Source: Candidatus Zixiibacteriota bacterium
GTDB taxonomy: Bacteria; Zixibacteria; MSB-5A5; GN15; FEB-12
NCBI GenBank assembly: GCA_020351995.1
Contig: CP070674.1
Coordinates: 3,226,007-3,290,006, forward strand
DNA: 64,000 bases
Reading direction: 5' to 3'
The notes under the pieces were generated by a model. The model searched no databases, had not been told where the DNA came from, and saw nothing but the letters and a program-made list of their open reading frames with translations. The translations under genes were made by a program, and so were the position numbers. Positions 15,243-23,507 of this stretch are shown one piece after another. The number at the start of each line of letters is the position of its first letter. Positions within the stretch are counted from its first letter, which is position 1.

Positions 15243-15276
15243 AAAAAAGTCGGGTACTTTCGTACCCGACTTTTTT
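15243..15276. terminator. Bidirectional intrinsic terminator
   Basis: AAAAAAGTCGGGTAC-TTTC-GTACCCGACTTTTTT between convergent genes. Confidence 0.9.
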
Positions 15277-15296: not shown

Positions 15297-16328
15297 TTAG
15301 AAGTTTGCCCTGAACGTGAAGAACTGATTATCGTCGAAGACGTCGCCAGTCTCGTTCCAGGAGTACTCGAAGGTGAGCGATACGCCTGAGAGCGGTATGG
15401 TTACACCGCCGCCGAAACTGAAGCCATAGAGCCAGGCGTTTTCATCTACCTCGTCGTCAGGGTCAGGGTCGTTTAGCGAGTAGTTATACCCGGCCCGTAA
15501 GGCATACTTGCCGTCATAAACATACTCGGCGCCACCCTGCCACAAATCCGCGGAATAGTTATTCGAGCGGAAATTCCCGGACAGGTTGGCCAGGTTACGG
15601 CCGTCGTCGAGAAAGTCGTAACCGACACCAATGTTGATTGAGCTGGGCAGATCGAACTTCTGCGCCACCGGGCGAACGGGAATGTTCTCGAAAATGAGGT
15701 CAAACCCTTCGCCGGAGAACTGCATCTCCGGGCCGTAGTTCTTCACCGCAAGACCCAGCGAGAGTCCGTACCATCTCGGCCTGTAGATAAAGCCGACGTC
15801 AAAGGCCACACCGCTTGCCCTCACCTCGTGGATATCCTCGTGGATAAACATAGCGTTGATGCCGAATGACACATTGGCCGTGAACTCGCGGGCATAGGTC
15901 AGATTCAGGACGGTCAGAGACGGGCTGAAGATACGTCCGGTGCCATCTGGATCGATTTCGGTAGTCTCTTCGATGTCACCGATCGAGACAACCTTCGCGC
16001 CGCCTCCAATGGTACCGAACCCTTCAATCGCCGTAGCGATGCCAAAGAAGTTGACGTCGATATCAGCGAAATAGGGCAGGTGCGTGAAGGCCGCTTCAGT
16101 ACCTTCCAGTGAGGCCAGACCGGCCGGGTTCCAGTACATCGCCTCGATCCCGTAAGTTGTGGACAGGACCGCTCCACCCATGGCCGTACCACGGGAACCG
16201 ACAGGAATCAGCAACTCCTGGGCACCGGCGGTACCGAGTCTCAAGTCGTTCCCCGCATAAGCCGAACACAGGCTTAACACAAGGAGAACCATGGTCAAAA
16301 TCAAGAATTTATACTTCATTACTTTCAT
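15297..16328 (-). CDS. PorV/PorQ-family outer-membrane beta-barrel
   Basis: GTAGAQELLIPVGSRGTAMGGA, AMYWNPAGLA, LRAGY, terminal Phe; signal peptide. Confidence 0.85.
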   Translation of the reverse strand: MKVMKYKFLILTMVLLVLSLCSAYAGNDLRLGTAGAQELLIPVGSRGTAMGGAVLSTTYGIEAMYWNPAGLASLEGTEAAFTHLPYFADIDVNFFGIATAIEGFGTIGGGAKVVSIGDIEETTEIDPDGTGRIFSPSLTVLNLTYAREFTANVSFGINAMFIHEDIHEVRASGVAFDVGFIYRPRWYGLSLGLAVKNYGPEMQFSGEGFDLIFENIPVRPVAQKFDLPSSINIGVGYDFLDDGRNLANLSGNFRSNNYSADLWQGGAEYVYDGKYALRAGYNYSLNDPDPDDEVDENAWLYGFSFGGGVTIPLSGVSLTFEYSWNETGDVFDDNQFFTFRANF

Positions 16329-16337
16329 GCTCCTTGT

Positions 16338-19300
16338 TTAGTAAATGTCCAAAACTTCCTGTTGAACGAAGACGGCCATCTTGCCTGTCTTAGTACCAAT
16401 CCCCGGAGCATCGACAACATAGATATAGATGCCTGAGGCGACGGGCAGACCGTTTACGTTCAGCACATCCCATGTCGCGATAGCATCGGTACCATCCTTC
16501 TCGATCGTCCGGACAAGGTCACCACTCAGATTGTAGATCCTTACGGTAGCCACTTCAGGAAGATGATGGAATTTAATTGCGTAACTGCCCGGGTTCGGAT
16601 CGTAGTCACCGCGCAGATAGAACGGATTCGGCACCGCCTTGATTAGGTCGAGATCGTTTTCAGCAGCGACATCCTCGACCATGGCAGCCGCAGTGAACTC
16701 AAAGACATCGTTAGAGGTGTTGATCTTCGCCGGAAGGATGATAAACTCGTCACCTGTCGCGAACGGCACGTCTGATCCACGGCGGTTCCACGCTGCCCAG
16801 TAAACAATGGGCATGGGATCGCCGATGGCCTCGCCCATGTAGTCCGTATTCGGGGTCGCATCAGTGTAATCATCAAGGAAGATCCAGAGCCACTCGCGAG
16901 GTCCGGTGGATCCTACGTTGGTCTGTCCCTGTTCTGCCAACACATCGCTCTCTTGCGGCCAGTACTTACCGTCCAACACTGCGAACTCGGCATTGTTTTC
17001 GAGGTAGCCAAGCGCCAACCGCTGAGGAGGATCGACATCCACATTCCAGGCTGAAAGAGGACAGCTCCTCTCGTAATCCTGGAAGCGATAGCCGCCATCT
17101 ACGGTGTTGATCATGAAAGGTACAAATTCCGGTTGTGCCGCCGGGGCTGTGAACCCGCGTCCATAGCGGTAGGCATAAGAGACGTTTTCGTCGGCGGGAT
17201 CGAAATTACCGTCAACATCCACCGTGGCGAGGCGCAGCAACACGTTGACCAGTAGGCTCGGAGGGACCTGTGGGTCGAGGCCACCGAAATAGTGCTGAGG
17301 CGATTCCCACCCAAGAGCGCCGCGGAAGCCTTCAAAGCCGAAGTCAGCCTGCGCCCACGTGAATCTCCGGGTGCCGTTGGGAATATCCCAACCCCACAAC
17401 GATTCATCATCGGTGGCAAACATATCGCTGGTCTTGACACCGGGCGTGGACGGTCCGGAAACCACGATCTTGAAGCCATCGACAATGGGATAGTCGAGGC
17501 CCCCGGTCTGGTCCACATAATACTCCACAAGACGCTGACCTGTAGACACGTTATCGAGGTGCCAGGCGATATCGGTGGAGACAAAGACAGTTTCCTCCGG
17601 AGCGTTAATCGGGTCGGGGATGGTGGTGTCAATACGAATGCCTATGGTATCCTCAAAAATGATACGATAGTCATCTCCCGTCAGTGCTCTTGGATTGACC
17701 ACATACGGGGCAACAACTCCGTCGGAGAGACCGGACGGGTGAGTAACCGCCAGTATATTTCCGATGTGTTCCGGATAGTCAACATCCACCGGAGGCGCCT
17801 GCGGCGTGACGCGGATGGTTGCGTTCGAAGTCAGGGTTCTCAGGCCAAGGGGACCCTCGGGGAAGGCGCAATAGGCTTCCACCCTGTAATTGTAGGTCGT
17901 GACATCCCTTAAAGGGAGACCGGTTATCACATCTTCGGTAATTGTGATGTGTCGCTGTACATCGGAGTTAGTGCCATTCTGAACCAGCAGGATCTCGGGA
18001 ACACCGGTGACGGGGTTGAAGACCTCGTCAAAGACGTCTTCGATAGTGTTGTTTATATCGTAGTTGGTAACCCGATGCCACGGTCCGGCGGGAGTCTCAC
18101 CCTGATAAATGGCATAGCCTTCAAAAGGATAGGTTCCGGGGTCAACTTCCGACGTGTCATCCCAGAACAGGGAAATCACACCGGCTTCAACCACACTGGA
18201 GACACGGGGCCGTGCCGGTGGCTTAAGGACCACGAAAGCACTGTCGTACGTGAGCTGAGCGAAACGATCGTAGAACTTCATCAGCGCGATCGAAGTTTTG
18301 CGATCCAGGGCCTGCGCAGCTATCGAGGCGGCCACGATCTCGGTCGAGTCACCGGGACGGAAGGTAATCGGACCGGTCGTCTGCATCCAGCGGCGGTCGT
18401 CCGGCGCGAAGTCCAGATCGCCGGTACCGGCAATCGGGTCGCCGGAAAGCACGAAGGTCAGAACCTGTCCGTTGTACACGTAGGGTGAACCGGTCTTGGT
18501 AAGACCCTGCATGAACCAGTAGGTCTGGTTGAAGTTGTCAGGGTCGGTACCGTTAATGTACTTGTTAAATGAGGTCATTCCGAGGTTCTTCATTCCCGGG
18601 AACTTCTGGAAATCCCACATAATGGCGGTATCGTTCTCATCGCCGGGGACCATCGGACCCTGGAAGAAGTCGTAGGCCCAGCACGGCGGAGGATTGTCAC
18701 CATATTGTCCGTCGTCATTATCGGCGTTATAGACGAATCCAAGACCGAGAACCGTATCGCAGCCGACCAGATCGTCACCCGCAGTTCCCAGGTCAGGGTC
18801 ACACCAGAGTGAGAAATAGCAGTTTTCCAGTGTGTTGTTGCCCTTATTATAGATACGATAACGCATAAAGACGACATCGCCGAGAGGGTCATCACGGTTA
18901 TAGGCAAACAGAGCCTGTTTAACCTCCAGCCCGAGCGGAGCGGTGGTGCCGGCGTCGTTCTGGTGCTGATTGGGATCAGCGTCATTGTAAACGGCCCAGA
19001 GGAATTGGTCGCCGAGTATCCGCGGCTCACCCGCCTCGCCGATGAGGTTACCCTCGCCGTCGTAGGTATCCTCGGTCCAGAACGGAGCGCCGAGATCAGG
19101 GCCGTAGAGCATGTAGTCGTCGTAGGTCTGGTTGCCGTTGTCTCCCAGGCTGTCCGCGTACAGCTTGTAGACCCTGAAGTCGCCCCTGTCCGTCATGAAG
19201 GTTCCGTTCTCCATCGGACCCGGAACGTATTCGCTGTCATATTCCGAAATAATGATGCGAATATCGCCCGTGGCCGAATCAATGGCGCCGACCCACAGAC

Positions 19301-19592
19301 CGCCCGCGTAGTTGGGCGAGAAGTTCTGCAGCTCGGTCGCGTTGATGATGGACGTGTCCTCTCCGACCGGGTAAGGATACCAAGTCCCGTAGTCGTGCCC
19401 GAAGGTACCACCCAGGTCACGTCCAAAGTTACCATGGTTGGTAACGAACATCAGTATCCTGTTAGCGGAGATAAAGGTAGTGTTGTCAATAATCGCTACC
19501 GACGGAGCTGTATAGTCTCCCTTCGGAGGCCTGGCCGCGACCGGCAGAGCCAACAGGAACACCATCAAACAGCATAATAGTTTTATTCTCAT
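16338..19592 (-). CDS. Large secreted hypothetical protein (1084 aa) with T9SS type-A-like C-terminal domain
   Basis: Signal peptide; C-terminus KAVPNPFY...IKFHHLP...RIYNLSGDLVRTI...WD...G..VASGIYIY...GK. Confidence 0.75.
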   Translation of the reverse strand: MRIKLLCCLMVFLLALPVAARPPKGDYTAPSVAIIDNTTFISANRILMFVTNHGNFGRDLGGTFGHDYGTWYPYPVGEDTSIINATELQNFSPNYAGGLWVGAIDSATGDIRIIISEYDSEYVPGPMENGTFMTDRGDFRVYKLYADSLGDNGNQTYDDYMLYGPDLGAPFWTEDTYDGEGNLIGEAGEPRILGDQFLWAVYNDADPNQHQNDAGTTAPLGLEVKQALFAYNRDDPLGDVVFMRYRIYNKGNNTLENCYFSLWCDPDLGTAGDDLVGCDTVLGLGFVYNADNDDGQYGDNPPPCWAYDFFQGPMVPGDENDTAIMWDFQKFPGMKNLGMTSFNKYINGTDPDNFNQTYWFMQGLTKTGSPYVYNGQVLTFVLSGDPIAGTGDLDFAPDDRRWMQTTGPITFRPGDSTEIVAASIAAQALDRKTSIALMKFYDRFAQLTYDSAFVVLKPPARPRVSSVVEAGVISLFWDDTSEVDPGTYPFEGYAIYQGETPAGPWHRVTNYDINNTIEDVFDEVFNPVTGVPEILLVQNGTNSDVQRHITITEDVITGLPLRDVTTYNYRVEAYCAFPEGPLGLRTLTSNATIRVTPQAPPVDVDYPEHIGNILAVTHPSGLSDGVVAPYVVNPRALTGDDYRIIFEDTIGIRIDTTIPDPINAPEETVFVSTDIAWHLDNVSTGQRLVEYYVDQTGGLDYPIVDGFKIVVSGPSTPGVKTSDMFATDDESLWGWDIPNGTRRFTWAQADFGFEGFRGALGWESPQHYFGGLDPQVPPSLLVNVLLRLATVDVDGNFDPADENVSYAYRYGRGFTAPAAQPEFVPFMINTVDGGYRFQDYERSCPLSAWNVDVDPPQRLALGYLENNAEFAVLDGKYWPQESDVLAEQGQTNVGSTGPREWLWIFLDDYTDATPNTDYMGEAIGDPMPIVYWAAWNRRGSDVPFATGDEFIILPAKINTSNDVFEFTAAAMVEDVAAENDLDLIKAVPNPFYLRGDYDPNPGSYAIKFHHLPEVATVRIYNLSGDLVRTIEKDGTDAIATWDVLNVNGLPVASGIYIYVVDAPGIGTKTGKMAVFVQQEVLDIY

Positions 19593-19613
19593 TTCTTCTT
19601 TTTCTCCTCTCCT

Positions 19614-22613
19614 TTAGAACGATACGCGCAGACCGGCAAAGATCATCCGCGGATTGGACCAGTTCTTGGGGTTGTTCTGCAGAAGATTATACCTGTACGC
19701 GAATTCTTCGCCAGTTTCCGGATCAGCCGCGCGTACCTGGCCTTCTTCGGTCTCAAGATAACCAGTCGTGTTTGGCTCACCGGTACCCTCATATACCGAA
19801 AGGATGTTCTCGCGGTTCAGCAGATTCTTGACCCAGATGTAGGGGCGGATTTTGAAATTGCCGACATCGAATGTCCGCTCCATCTTCAGGTCAATCACGA
19901 AGGTCCACGGCATATTGGCGGAGTTGAGGCCGCCGGTCGGAGCCTGCTGGACCGACTTGTTGGTGACGGCGTCATATGGCTCCATCGGCGTATAGGGCAG
20001 ACCGCTGGCAAGCTGAGCAACCACGTTCAAACCAAAGTTCTCCAGTGGGTGATAGTTGCCGAGCATCGGGCCCTCACCCTTGAGGGTGCGAATGTCGAAG
20101 ATACCGATGACGCTATGACGCTGGTCATAGTCGAGAGGCGAAGTGGACTTGGGTGTTCCGGTCGGGTTCTTCCAAGCGATATTGAACATGCTGTTAGCAT
20201 ACGAACCGGTTCCGTTGGCATAGCTGAGAGTATATTTCACCTGGAGCATGATATTACGAGTACGGCGCATATTAAGGCTGAAATCGACACCCTTAATCGT
20301 ACCGTAGTCGGTGTTGCCATAGTAGTCGTATGCCGTTGGATACGCTGGAGTCTGGTGGAAGATGGCGACCAGATCCTGAACGTCCTTGTAATACGCGGTC
20401 ACGTCGAAGGCCGTGAACTCACCCAGCTGGTGCGTAATACCCACTTCATACTGGGTAACTTTCTCGGGCTTCAGGTTCGGGTTCGGGAACGCGAAGTACG
20501 AGCCGGCGTCTACACGGGAGGCCAGGAAGTCATATCCGACATAGAGGTTTTGAAGGTCGGGCCGCTGATAGAACTTACCATAGTTGACATGGAGTTGAGT
20601 AACGTCGCTGACCGGGAAGGAGATACCCAGACGCGGGGAAAGGCGCGTAAATACCTCGCTATCTTCAAGGTCGCTCGCATCAATTGCCCTGTCAATATCT
20701 TCCGGGGCAATGTCGGGGTCAAGCCACGTGGAGTCAGGATCAATGGGGGCCTCGACGTTGCGCAGCCGCTTGGCGTTGTAGTCAAACAAGTCGAAACGCA
20801 CCCCGGCACTGACAATTAAACCACGCCAGTCGAAACGATCCTGCAGGTAAAGACCCAGGTTGATCGGATGTTTGGCACCGAAAGCGTAGATAGTATCCAG
20901 GATTCCGCCAGAGAGGGTAATAGTATCCTCAATGGAGAAGTCCTCACGATCGGACACTTCGCCGTAAATGTCATAGCCGAAGCGGTTCCAGCGCTGTTCG
21001 TTCCAACCCTTGGTGGCGTCACCCGTATTGAGGCGACGGACCGAATGACGCTGGAAGTCGAAACCGAATTTCAGCGTATGGCTGGGTGTCACCTGGCTGG
21101 TGATGTCACCCTTGAAGCCGATATACGATGATTTGCGTAATAACACTACCGGCTGGTAGGATTCGAGATATACCAGGAAGGTATCGTCATCGTCACCGGC
21201 AGCGACGGCGGGGTTGATCTCACTCTCGAATACGCTATCGCCCTCACGGAACAGGTTATGGATATCCCATTCCGGGTTGGCGAACTCGTCACCCCTAATA
21301 AACCGCTGATAGGCCTCGATATCATCAAACAGATCACCATCACCGCGGATTCTCTCGGTCGAGAAGAACGAAGCGCTCAAGTTATAGAAAGTCTTGGCGT
21401 CCAGCGTATGGGTGACCTTGGCGTTGAGACCGATGTTCTCATCACGGTAGCGACGGGCATGATCGATCTGGCCGGGGAAAGCCGGGTTGTTATAGAAGTG
21501 CCAGTATTCGGACCAGCGATCGATCGAACCGTTGCCGTTAACGGTGAATTTGAGATTCGGGGTAACGTTGTAGTCGATCTTACCCTGATAGGACCAGCCT
21601 TCGAGCCAGTTCTTGGGCATGGTGTAGCCGTTGTAAACACCGCCATAAAGAGTATCAAGACCGGCATCCGCCCAGATGTCATGAGTCTTAATGGACGGGT
21701 TGCGGTCCTCCAGATAGCGACGCTCGCCCGAGAAATAGAAGAAACCGTTCTCCGTTCCCGGGATGGGACCGCTTACGTCGGCCGTGTAGTAGTTATGATC
21801 GAAAACAGGTTTATTCTCGCCTTCAAGGAAGTTATCCGTGACGCCTTCGAGGGCAGCATGATACTCATTGCTACCGGAGTTGGTGACCACGTTGACAATA
21901 CCGGAGGCAACGTGACCATACTCGGCCGAGAACGCGCCTGACTGAACCGACACTTCCTGGATGGCGTTGTTACTGATATTCGCCGTCGAGATACCTGTCA
22001 GCGGGTCCTGCTGGGAGAAACCATCGACATAGTAAGCGACCTCGGAAGGACGGCCGCCACGAAGGTTAATCTCAGCACCATTGGCAAGGTTCTCACGACC
22101 GGCGCGTTGCCGGATGTCGACGTTGGCGTTCATACGCACAACGCTGTTCTGAATTCCGACAACCTGCTCGAAACCACGGGTCGGCAACGCCTGAAGTTCA
22201 TCTCCTCTGATGACGTTGATACTCGTGGTCTTGTCGCGAATCACCAGCTTATCCTCGGCCCTTACCTCGATGACGGTGCCGAGTTCAGCCGCCTCGGGCT
22301 GCATCGCCTGGTTCTGATACGCGGCCAGATCGGCGTGGACAAGCACGTTGGATACTTCCACCGTCGAGTAGCCCACGGCGCTCATAACGACCGTGTATGT
22401 TCCTACAGGCACATTCAAGATGGAGTACCGACCATCCGCGTCGGTGATTGCACCCCAAGTTGTACCCTGCACAGACACGGTCACACCTACCAGCGGTTGC
22501 TGGGTTTCGGCATCTGTGACCACACCTGTAATCTTCCCAACTACTGCACTAAAAACAGAACCTGTTAGTAGAAGCAGCAGGGTACACGTGATACACAAGA
22601 GTTTAAGCTTCAT
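19614..22613 (-). CDS. TonB-dependent receptor with N-terminal carboxypeptidase-regulatory-like domain
   Basis: GKITGVVTDAET..PLVG, plug RGGRPSEVAYYVDG, GAFSAEYG...SGIVNVVT, SPRLG.SFP, NPR..FAGLRVSF terminus. Confidence 0.92.
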   Translation of the reverse strand: MKLKLLCITCTLLLLLTGSVFSAVVGKITGVVTDAETQQPLVGVTVSVQGTTWGAITDADGRYSILNVPVGTYTVVMSAVGYSTVEVSNVLVHADLAAYQNQAMQPEAAELGTVIEVRAEDKLVIRDKTTSINVIRGDELQALPTRGFEQVVGIQNSVVRMNANVDIRQRAGRENLANGAEINLRGGRPSEVAYYVDGFSQQDPLTGISTANISNNAIQEVSVQSGAFSAEYGHVASGIVNVVTNSGSNEYHAALEGVTDNFLEGENKPVFDHNYYTADVSGPIPGTENGFFYFSGERRYLEDRNPSIKTHDIWADAGLDTLYGGVYNGYTMPKNWLEGWSYQGKIDYNVTPNLKFTVNGNGSIDRWSEYWHFYNNPAFPGQIDHARRYRDENIGLNAKVTHTLDAKTFYNLSASFFSTERIRGDGDLFDDIEAYQRFIRGDEFANPEWDIHNLFREGDSVFESEINPAVAAGDDDDTFLVYLESYQPVVLLRKSSYIGFKGDITSQVTPSHTLKFGFDFQRHSVRRLNTGDATKGWNEQRWNRFGYDIYGEVSDREDFSIEDTITLSGGILDTIYAFGAKHPINLGLYLQDRFDWRGLIVSAGVRFDLFDYNAKRLRNVEAPIDPDSTWLDPDIAPEDIDRAIDASDLEDSEVFTRLSPRLGISFPVSDVTQLHVNYGKFYQRPDLQNLYVGYDFLASRVDAGSYFAFPNPNLKPEKVTQYEVGITHQLGEFTAFDVTAYYKDVQDLVAIFHQTPAYPTAYDYYGNTDYGTIKGVDFSLNMRRTRNIMLQVKYTLSYANGTGSYANSMFNIAWKNPTGTPKSTSPLDYDQRHSVIGIFDIRTLKGEGPMLGNYHPLENFGLNVVAQLASGLPYTPMEPYDAVTNKSVQQAPTGGLNSANMPWTFVIDLKMERTFDVGNFKIRPYIWVKNLLNRENILSVYEGTGEPNTTGYLETEEGQVRAADPETGEEFAYRYNLLQNNPKNWSNPRMIFAGLRVSF

Positions 22614-23241: not shown

Positions 23242-23263
23242 GCCATGGCCAATTTGTACTGAT

Positions 23264-23336
23264 GACCCCATCGTCTAGTGGCCTAGGACACCGCCCTTTC
23301 ACGGCGGTAACACGGGTTCGACTCCCGTTGGGGTCA
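23264..23336 (+). tRNA. tRNA-Glu (TTC), CCA not encoded
   Basis: Acceptor GACCCCA/TGGGGTC; anticodon arm CCGCC-CTTTCAC-GGCGG; T arm ACGGG-TTCGACT-CCCGT. Confidence 0.97.
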
Positions 23337-23507
23337 TTTTTTCTTTAAGTTTCTTTTGGGTTGGTTTCTCCCCGTAGAATCAGCACTAATCGCTTGCCCA
23401 TCAGGACATTTCTAATTAGAATATTTATCCTGAAAACTTGAAAATAACGAACGTTTAACAATCCCAAGCCTAAGGCGATACAGCAAAAACGCCTTGCGGA
23501 GGTTGAT

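Follow-up and report, generated by a model that had tools for sequence, protein, structure and literature searches.

The SusC/SusD pair is the standard model for polymer capture in Bacteroidota. Most other phyla of the Fibrobacterota-Chlorobiota-Bacteroidota (FCB) group (among them Zixibacteria, Latescibacterota, Eisenbacteria, Calditrichota, Ignavibacteriota and Rhodothermota) possess TonB receptors and no SusD. Here we analyse a three-gene locus from a member of the Zixibacteria, lying within a 64-kb stretch of its genome (contig CP070674.1; the whole stretch is hereafter the window), which encodes a TonB-dependent receptor (TBDR; P0001), a large cargo protein (P0002) ending in a type IX secretion system (T9SS) C-terminal sorting domain (CTD), and a PorV-like outer-membrane barrel (P0003). 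On balance, we favour the view that this triad is a SusD-independent uptake unit, in which the T9SS-exported partner would be anchored by its own PorV/PorQ-type barrel.

The triad is built from elements already known, namely a TonB transporter that has a surface partner and a barrel cognate to a CTD protein, and it is probably their combination that is undescribed. In PorZ-PorQ and PorU-PorV, the CTD is retained uncleaved on the cognate barrel and the protein is thereby held at the surface, and the review in which this is discussed puts forward the hypothesis that cognate PorV-like barrels protect the CTD from cleavage (PMC10202324). In Flavobacteria, barrel genes of the PorP/SprF family adjoin those of type-B CTD cargo, as in SprB/SprF (PMC10202324). 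The 14-stranded barrel BamG, which is FadL/PorV-like, packs against BamA, and its extracellular loops hold BamH, a surface protein (PMC12578637). No published account of a module that combines a receptor, a CTD protein and a PorV-like barrel was found in a full-text literature search. The alginate utilisation locus of Rhodothermus marinus, however, has a TonB receptor, a protein with a T9SS type-A CTD and a PorV/PorQ-family protein directly upstream of its alginate lyases (PMC9530828). Figure 2 of that paper lists the genes in this order, treats them as hypothetical and passes over the order without comment. The R. marinus locus shows the same gene order as the triad, the two being likened by annotation and order and not by cargo sequence. 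An earlier note on this DNA, made from its letters alone, likewise knew of no experimental characterisation of the architecture.

A tight operon in a genome without SusD

The host genome is complete in a single contig (C1) of 3.61 Mb, and close homologues of P0002 are labelled Zixibacteria. Coordinates given as genome positions refer to the whole of it, all others to the window. In the list of open reading frames (ORFs), the triad is read on the minus strand in the order receptor (22613..19614), CTD protein (19592..16338) and barrel (16328..15297), and its features are as follows.

19614..22613, minus strand: TonB-dependent receptor P0001, 999 aa, with a signal peptide, a CarboxypepD_reg-like N-extension (aa 28-114), Plug (aa 126-238) and barrel (aa 372-915)
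16338..19592, minus strand: cargo P0002, 1084 aa, four-part, with a Sec signal peptide and no lipobox
18228..19490, minus strand: N-domain of P0002 (aa ~35-455), the best-conserved part of the protein, in which numerous Asp, Asn and Trp residues are invariant, among them those of WxDPDLGxAGDDLVGCD
16341..16598, minus strand: variant type-A CTD of P0002 (aa 999-1084), including the 10-residue tail FVQQEVLDIY (nt 16341-16370)
15297..16328, minus strand: PorV/PorQ-family barrel P0003, 343 aa, of the 14-strand type
15243..15276, minus strand: intrinsic terminator with a 15-bp stem, a 4-nt loop and a T-run, 20 nt past the last stop codon

The receptor, cargo and barrel genes form a tight operon. 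The first and second genes are spaced by 21 nt and the second and third by 9 nt, both gaps contain a Shine-Dalgarno sequence (AGGAG ahead of gene 2, AAGGAG ahead of gene 3), and the strong terminator closes the operon. The flanking genes are a convergent UDP-glucose dehydrogenase gene downstream, and tRNA-Glu and an aldehyde dehydrogenase gene upstream; since these neighbours are unrelated and differently oriented, the triad is a self-contained unit. A sigma-70 scan of the minus strand gave no clean promoter, the sequence TTGACA-19 nt-TATTCT at ~22780-22750 being merely promoter-like, and a search of the 0.9 kb upstream of the receptor for riboswitches and other Rfam elements returned tRNA-Glu only. 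At 0-3 mismatches, contigs from a sediment metatranscriptome extend over the barrel gene and over the cargo gene at its 3' end, which is weak evidence that these are expressed, as DNA carry-over is possible. The tRNA-Glu (UUC) lies at 23263-23337 on the plus strand, between the upstream region of the triad and the aldehyde dehydrogenase gene, and the metatranscriptome contigs that pile up there derive from the conserved tRNA.

P0001 scored above the cut-offs for Plug (PF07715, 35.6 bits; cut-off 23.9) and for the TonB-dependent barrel (PF00593, 93.6 bits; cut-off 27), and five TonB_C matches over cut-off were found in the genome. In terms of function, the closest described system is SusC/SusD (RagA/RagB) with its utilisomes. 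In both cases a TonB-dependent transporter with a CarboxypepD_reg-like N-extension is encoded beside a large, putatively surface-exposed partner, within one operon that has been duplicated as a unit, and an alginate-degrading locus of R. marinus is headed by this gene order too. Nevertheless, P0001 and its genome lack both features that define membership. The receptor lies outside the SusC/RagA family (TIGR04056, 89.7 bits against a cut-off of 368), its match being restricted to the N-extension and plug (aa 27-249), and the SusD families PF07980 and PF14322 had no match genome-wide, while a Bacteroides thetaiotaomicron control was positive. The partner in the triad further differs from SusD in being a non-lipoprotein that is all-beta rather than tetratricopeptide repeat (TPR)-like and carries a T9SS CTD, and the triad includes an obligatory third gene, for the PorV/PorQ-type barrel. 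The outline given in the earlier note was confirmed, namely three tightly spaced genes with their own terminator (hairpin 15276..15243), a large non-lipoprotein CTD protein (its signal peptide has no lipobox) and no SusD beside the receptor; nor does the genome encode one elsewhere.

Conservation and duplication of the triad

A pattern scan with one genome per species identified at least 561 loci with a P0002 relative, and 80 of these were fetched and searched by tblastn with P0001, P0002 and P0003. Among these 80, the order TBDR, cargo, PorV-like barrel, all on the same strand, was found in essentially every locus with enough flank. These loci span at least seven phylum-level groups, comprising Zixibacteria, Latescibacterota, Eisenbacteria, Calditrichia, Ignavibacteria/Melioribacter, Gemmatimonadota and a few Bacteroidota metagenome-assembled genomes (MAGs). 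The only exceptions were L017, to which we return below, and L050, with two tandem cargo genes and neither partner. Clustering of the flanking ORFs showed nothing else to be conserved, the next commonest neighbour occurring in 10 of the 80 loci. Within the phylum, the cargo profile matched 134 of 151 genomes at E <= 1e-20, and by our count ~90 of the 151 have a strong match, either full-length or over the first two thirds. The prediction of the earlier note that the three members would be conserved together, put forward with their separate inheritance as the outcome that would speak against it, thus agrees with what is seen across these groups.

The same note had proposed a genome-wide count of paralogous triads. 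The genome contains a second triad as well as a third locus at which a receptor and a barrel are encoded together.

Genome 1397011-1390549: triad 2, encoding a TBDR (906 aa), a CTD protein (903 aa) and a PorV-like barrel (339 aa)
Genome 2362780-2369381: third receptor-barrel locus, with a TBDR of 1112 aa, then a PorV-like gene, then a 738-aa protein

Each protein of triad 2 is the closest paralogue of its counterpart in triad 1. The two cargo profiles aligned over 672 columns in hhalign (probability 100, E 9e-71), and since homology extends across most of both cargo families, the receptor, cargo and barrel have been duplicated as a set. Orthologues of the triad-2 cargo are present in 79 of 101 phylum genomes, and the triad-2 order was kept in all 23 loci fetched from other genomes, usually with a fourth gene (559 aa). 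The three genes are therefore a co-inherited and co-duplicated module, and their association is far from chance. The triad-2 barrel has a faint match to BamG (26.9 bits, cut-off 250), the sole BamG match among these barrels.

At the third locus, the 738-aa protein was considered as a cargo homologue and rejected, being unrelated to P0002; it has no CTD and is lipoprotein-like, with a lipobox-like SGC. The 1112-aa TBDR of this locus contains an insertion of ~300 aa crowded with Asp/Asn/Gly repeats of the DxNGNG type, which are calcium-binding-like.

The cargo, its variant sorting domain and the barrel

P0002 is composed of the N-domain (~aa 35-455), a fibronectin type III (FN3) domain (~460-598), a beta-rich region (~599-990) and the variant T9SS CTD. 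Pfam and NCBIfam recognised no domain in it beyond the CTD, and a sequence-profile search of the PDB found nothing. An AlphaFold2 model built with 52 homologues is confident and mostly beta, with a predicted local distance difference test score (pLDDT) of 85.6. Foldseek searches of the PDB with the full model returned PorZ (via its CTD, E 1e-6), FN3 arrays and N-terminal beta-sandwiches, the last being the N-terminal sandwich of enzymes of glycoside hydrolase (GH) families GH116, GH94 and GH149 and of dextran dextrinase; the Foldseek probabilities were high and the TM-scores low (0.17-0.25). As modelled, the N-domain weakly resembles a GH116/GH94-type N-terminal beta-sandwich, and the fold would be compatible with a carbohydrate-binding-type sandwich while being silent on catalysis. 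A separate model of aa 596-990 (pLDDT 88.4) gave no significant match in the PDB, the best E being 0.2 and the names listed being at chance level. The description of this protein in the earlier note as one of unrecognised fold thus applies to aa 596-990, but not to the FN3 domain or to the weakly GH116/GH94-like sandwich at its N-terminus.

Part of the ectodomain is exchangeable. In about one third of close homologues, aa ~720-985 (window 16638-17433) are replaced by unrelated sequence; these proteins (P0005, P0027-P0034 and others) align with P0002 over the first two thirds and keep the CTD and its tail. The N-domain recurs, sometimes in tandem, in further CTD proteins encoded by the genome, whose CTDs are canonical and which lack a receptor. 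Three such proteins of ~910-960 aa are encoded side by side at genome 1923397-1931943 and carry one or two N-domain copies with 45-51% identity, and the N-domain is hence a reusable module that extends beyond the receptor-linked cargo. Weak tblastn similarity to the N-domain was also seen in nine paralogous CTD proteins (~870-920 aa) whose genes form a tandem array at genome 1153694-1178308 (13 genome-wide, including 465910-471333 and 1204551-1207223); their CTD subclass ends in ...TRNTQ..GLYYW.VE...GKLVII, and no barrel or receptor gene adjoins the array.

The CTD of P0002 scored 26.3 bits on TIGR04183 (cut-off 23; aa 999-1063) and 15.6 bits on the Pfam model Por_Secre_tail (PF18962), under its cut-off of 27. 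The model for the PorZ C-terminus (NF052228) matched it about as well as the generic model (E 1.4e-6), and AlphaFold2 predicts a beta-sandwich at aa 1003-1075. Ten residues extend past the last CTD strand, so that this strand is not C-terminal. Such an extra tail is unique to P0002 among the 82 CTD-bearing ORFs found in the genome with an iterated hidden Markov model (HMM), most of the others ending in a stereotyped ...KKMxLxK, and an acidic tail of the form ...GK(M/V)A(V/I)F.E.E.L..(Y/F)-COOH was present in every full-length member of the P0002 family that was examined.

P0003 belongs to the PorV/PorQ family (NF033709, 175.5 bits over aa 34-343; cut-off 90). It remains under both equivalog cut-offs, with 96 of 220 bits for PorQ (NF033711) and 64.6 of 250 bits for PorV (NF033710), and scores higher on PorQ than on PorV; the match to the Pfam FadL/Toluene_X family is weak (26.8 bits) and below cut-off. 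What the earlier note had called the cargo's own PorV paralog is thus a member of the family, but neither a PorV nor a PorQ equivalog, and the best PorV and PorQ candidates of the genome are other genes (g1881 and g0495). The orthologues of the triad-1 barrel form a clade with 100/99 support in a tree of PorV-like paralogues.

Among ~13 solid PorV-like genes in the genome, 7-8 lie directly downstream of a gene for a CTD protein, PorU-PorV being counted among the pairs, and as just 2.8% of ORFs carry a CTD, the binomial probability of this pairing is ~2e-8. Barrel-paired cargoes have CTDs that fit the consensus CTD of the genome less well (median score 52 vs 81 bits, Mann-Whitney p = 0.001). 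The pairing and the atypical CTDs, read from the sequences, offer indirect support for a private barrel that would hold its own cargo. Pairs of this kind without any TBDR are found elsewhere in the genome. At genome 322049-327633, 827942-832511, 3472286-3479877 and 3550610-3559407, a CTD gene (886 to ~2200 aa) precedes a private PorV-like gene; three of these barrels have a fused, helix-rich, TPR-like C-terminal extension of ~350 aa, and one of the CTD genes has two tandem PorV-like genes behind it.

Co-evolution between the triad members was assessed by a mirror-tree test on the distance matrices of CTD, barrel, receptor and cargo core from 49 complete loci. All matrices correlate (r 0.76-0.86), the highest value being that of TBDR and PorV-like barrel (r 0.86), and when the cargo core is controlled for, partial correlations of 0.54 (CTD-barrel), 0.59 (CTD-receptor) and 0.65 (barrel-receptor) are obtained.

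The host encodes the translocon of the T9SS and its sortase, together with a housekeeping PorV. SprA (TIGR04189, 570.7 bits) and PorU (NF033707, 675.2 bits) are present, and the gene next to PorU is the best PorV candidate (176 bits, under the cut-off of 250). At genome 2233035-2242870 the order is PorU (1294 aa), this PorV candidate (874 aa), in which an insertion of ~540 aa follows the first strand, and a 1010-aa CTD protein with a HEFGH metalloprotease motif and FG-GAP-like repeats.

As to how the partner may be held, the closest systems are PorZ-PorQ and PorU-PorV of the Porphyromonas T9SS attachment complex. The likeness lies in the pairing of a CTD protein with its own PorV-family barrel, in the match of the P0002 CTD to the PorZ C-terminus and in the higher score of P0003 on PorQ than on PorV. 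The triad differs from them in that P0003 is under the equivalog cut-offs, the cargo is unrelated outside the CTD, a TonB receptor is coupled to the pair and the host has no detectable GldKLM. With the type-B systems of the SprB/SprF kind it shares a dedicated barrel gene beside the cargo gene, but its barrel is of the PorV/PorQ and not the PorP/SprF family, its CTD is type-A-like with a tail, and SprB/SprF systems have no receptor. BamG-BamH provides a structural precedent for two barrels with one ectodomain, although there the machine is that of outer-membrane protein assembly, the partner is a lipoprotein and no CTD is involved.

Proposed role, alternatives and substrate

We propose that the three proteins would operate as a single module in the outer membrane, by which a bacterium without SusD would capture and import nutrients. 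P0002 would cross the inner membrane via Sec and the outer membrane via SprA, whereupon its variant CTD would be captured by the cognate barrel P0003 and probably kept uncleaved, as in PorQ-PorZ and PorV-PorU. The beta-rich ectodomain would thereby be fixed on the surface beside the transporter P0001, where it could bind and possibly process a macromolecular substrate and hand it over to P0001 for TonB-driven import. P0002 would thus take the role of the SusD and surface glycan-binding lipoproteins of Bacteroidia, with a protein barrel in place of the lipid anchor. What becomes of the CTD, how cargo, barrel and receptor touch and which substrate is taken up are inferred, and the cargo may, as the earlier note had suggested, serve as lid or enzyme for the TBDR.

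A larger claim, which we regard as tentative and somewhat doubtful, is that the triad represents a distinct class of uptake machine. In this class a 22-strand transporter, a 14-strand barrel and a T9SS-exported ectodomain would form an obligate complex, widespread in SusD-less FCB-group phyla. To the pairings of type A with PorV and of type B with PorP/SprF, the variant CTD with its acidic, Tyr- or Phe-terminated tail would add a third kind of match between CTD and carrier, and the T9SS concerned would have SprA, PorU and PorV and do without a GldKLMN motor. If the triad is the counterpart of SusC/SusD in those phyla, it would explain how abundant degraders of sediment and soil feed. It would also mean that PorV-family barrels act not only as shuttles in secretion but also to anchor uptake machinery permanently, and it would give a function to a family of at least several hundred members now annotated as hypothetical protein. 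The idea is directly testable, as the gene order of the triad occurs in the cultured and genetically tractable R. marinus, beside characterised alginate lyases.

Several observations weigh against the uptake unit as proposed. The assignment of the CTD by curated thresholds is marginal, with TIGR04183 just over and Pfam under, and the ectodomain has matches of fold that are weak (TM 0.17-0.25) or absent, with no recognisable binding or catalytic site. At the third locus, the barrel cannot be a CTD anchor, because its partner protein has no CTD. In L017, no barrel gene lies within 6 kb of an otherwise normal receptor-cargo pair. A swap of this cargo to a canonical CTD was considered and rejected, since the L017 cargo keeps the family tail. 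At its deeper nodes the tree of PorV-like paralogues lacks resolution, and it does not show the receptor-linked barrels as a single clade. The covariation in the mirror-tree test is confounded by phylogeny and by swaps of cargo-core domains, and the result is therefore taken as suggestive only; of the co-evolution that the earlier note wished to see, the partial correlations stand with this reservation. Lastly, the census of SprA, PorU and PorK-N that it had proposed came out in part. While SprA, PorU and a PorU-adjacent PorV candidate were found, GldL and GldM had no match and GldK only paralogues under the cut-off (90.8 of 350 bits; GldN was not searched). Six relatives' genomes were searched as well (L010, L036, L046, L055, L070 and L079, of which L046, L055 and L079 for GldM alone). 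GldL, GldM and GldK gave the same negative result in another Zixibacteria, a Latescibacterota and a Calditrichia genome, and GldM, the sole query there, was absent from a Melioribacter genome, the KatS3mg041 genome and a Chitinophagaceae-labelled MAG, while the same searches of a Bacteroidales MAG as control found contiguous gldK-gldL-gldM. Genomes with SprA, PorU, PorV and CTD proteins and with no detectable GldL or GldM raise the question of how T9SS-type export is energised.

The triad could instead be a looser functional operon, in which the cargo is an ordinary T9SS-secreted enzyme or binding protein, on the surface or released, the barrel is its dedicated shuttle from SprA to PorU, and the receptor imports the products with no lid. 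Canonical PorV is such a shuttle (as cited in PMC12578637), the host has PorU together with a housekeeping PorV, and in published polysaccharide loci T9SS enzymes serve TonB receptors with no direct contact, the alginate lyases of R. marinus themselves carrying CTDs. However, ~70 other CTD proteins of the genome manage with no private barrel, the strict co-inheritance and co-duplication of three genes exceed the apparent needs of a shuttle, as do the invariant extra tail and the covariation of the CTD with both barrels, and we consider this explanation rather unlikely. The high correlation of TBDR and PorV-like barrel in the mirror-tree test, which is kept when the cargo core is controlled for, could alternatively mean that these two are the core pair and the middle gene a variable add-on, the small barrel being no CTD anchor but a channel of the FadL type or a transporter accessory, which might serve an amphipathic substrate, for example, or the assembly of the receptor. 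The third locus, where the TBDR gene is directly followed by a PorV-like gene and then by one for an unrelated, CTD-less protein, fits this explanation, as do the weak FadL/Toluene_X match of P0003 and the precedent of BamG as a FadL-like structural partner of a larger barrel. Yet P0003 is clearly of the PorV/PorQ family, with FadL below cut-off, PorV-like genes follow CTD genes genome-wide where there is no TBDR, and the cargo is as strictly conserved as both barrels in both triads, which leaves a core pair of receptor and barrel improbable.

Oar is required for the secretion of PopC in Myxococcus. A similar part for P0001, in TonB-energised export or surface assembly of the cargo, would compensate for the undetected Gld motor in this genome, in another Zixibacteria genome and in those searched from Latescibacterota and Calditrichia, and the receptor has a CarboxypepD_reg N-domain like proteins of the Oar type. 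But SprA, the known translocon for CTD proteins, is present, some 80 CTD proteins face just three such receptors, a folded 115-kDa protein cannot pass a plugged 22-strand barrel, and Pfam finds only the generic TonB-dependent barrel and Plug, all of which makes an export role very improbable. Hardly any more credit, and if anything slightly less, can be given to a housekeeping role in the envelope, either in cell-wall turnover or in the T9SS attachment machinery with the cargo as an analogue of PorZ. The best fold and HMM matches of the cargo do include PorZ, but these are limited to the CTD; the triad is single-copy and widely conserved, but ~40% of phylum genomes are without a strong match. 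In some relatives muropeptide-processing genes are found nearby. A TonB-dependent receptor points to import, and uptake by a receptor with a barrel-anchored partner remains the explanation that we favour.

The substrate of this uptake unit is most likely a glycan or glycopeptide. No conserved neighbour that might hint at it was consistent across the 80 loci. In five of them (L001, L006, L031, L047, L073), an NlpC/P60 peptidase with a dipeptidyl-peptidase SH3 domain is encoded behind the triad and on its strand, and farther downstream come an enolase-superfamily epimerase and an Amidase_3, unseen in the shorter locus L047; five Eisenbacteria loci have an NlpC/P60 gene just upstream of the triad. 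Judged by their families, NlpC/P60, epimerase and Amidase_3 resemble a muropeptide-catabolic set. The link is found in only ~10 of the 80 loci, and these genes lie 3 Mb from the triad in the host; peptidoglycan fragments are a lead that we regard as doubtful. In L001, L006, L031 and L047, the triad sits between a transketolase-aminotransferase segment and the NlpC/P60-epimerase-amidase genes. In the host, these two segments adjoin each other at genome 179963-187685 with an empty gap of ~700 nt between them, and since the flanks of the triad in relatives are thus joined here, 3 Mb away, the triad has moved as a three-gene unit. In six further loci (L026, L046, L052, L053, L055, L070), which represent the Bacteroidota, Calditrichia, Melioribacter and Gemmatimonadota versions of the triad, a GWxTD-domain protein of ~455 aa is encoded ~100-450 nt behind the PorV-like gene.

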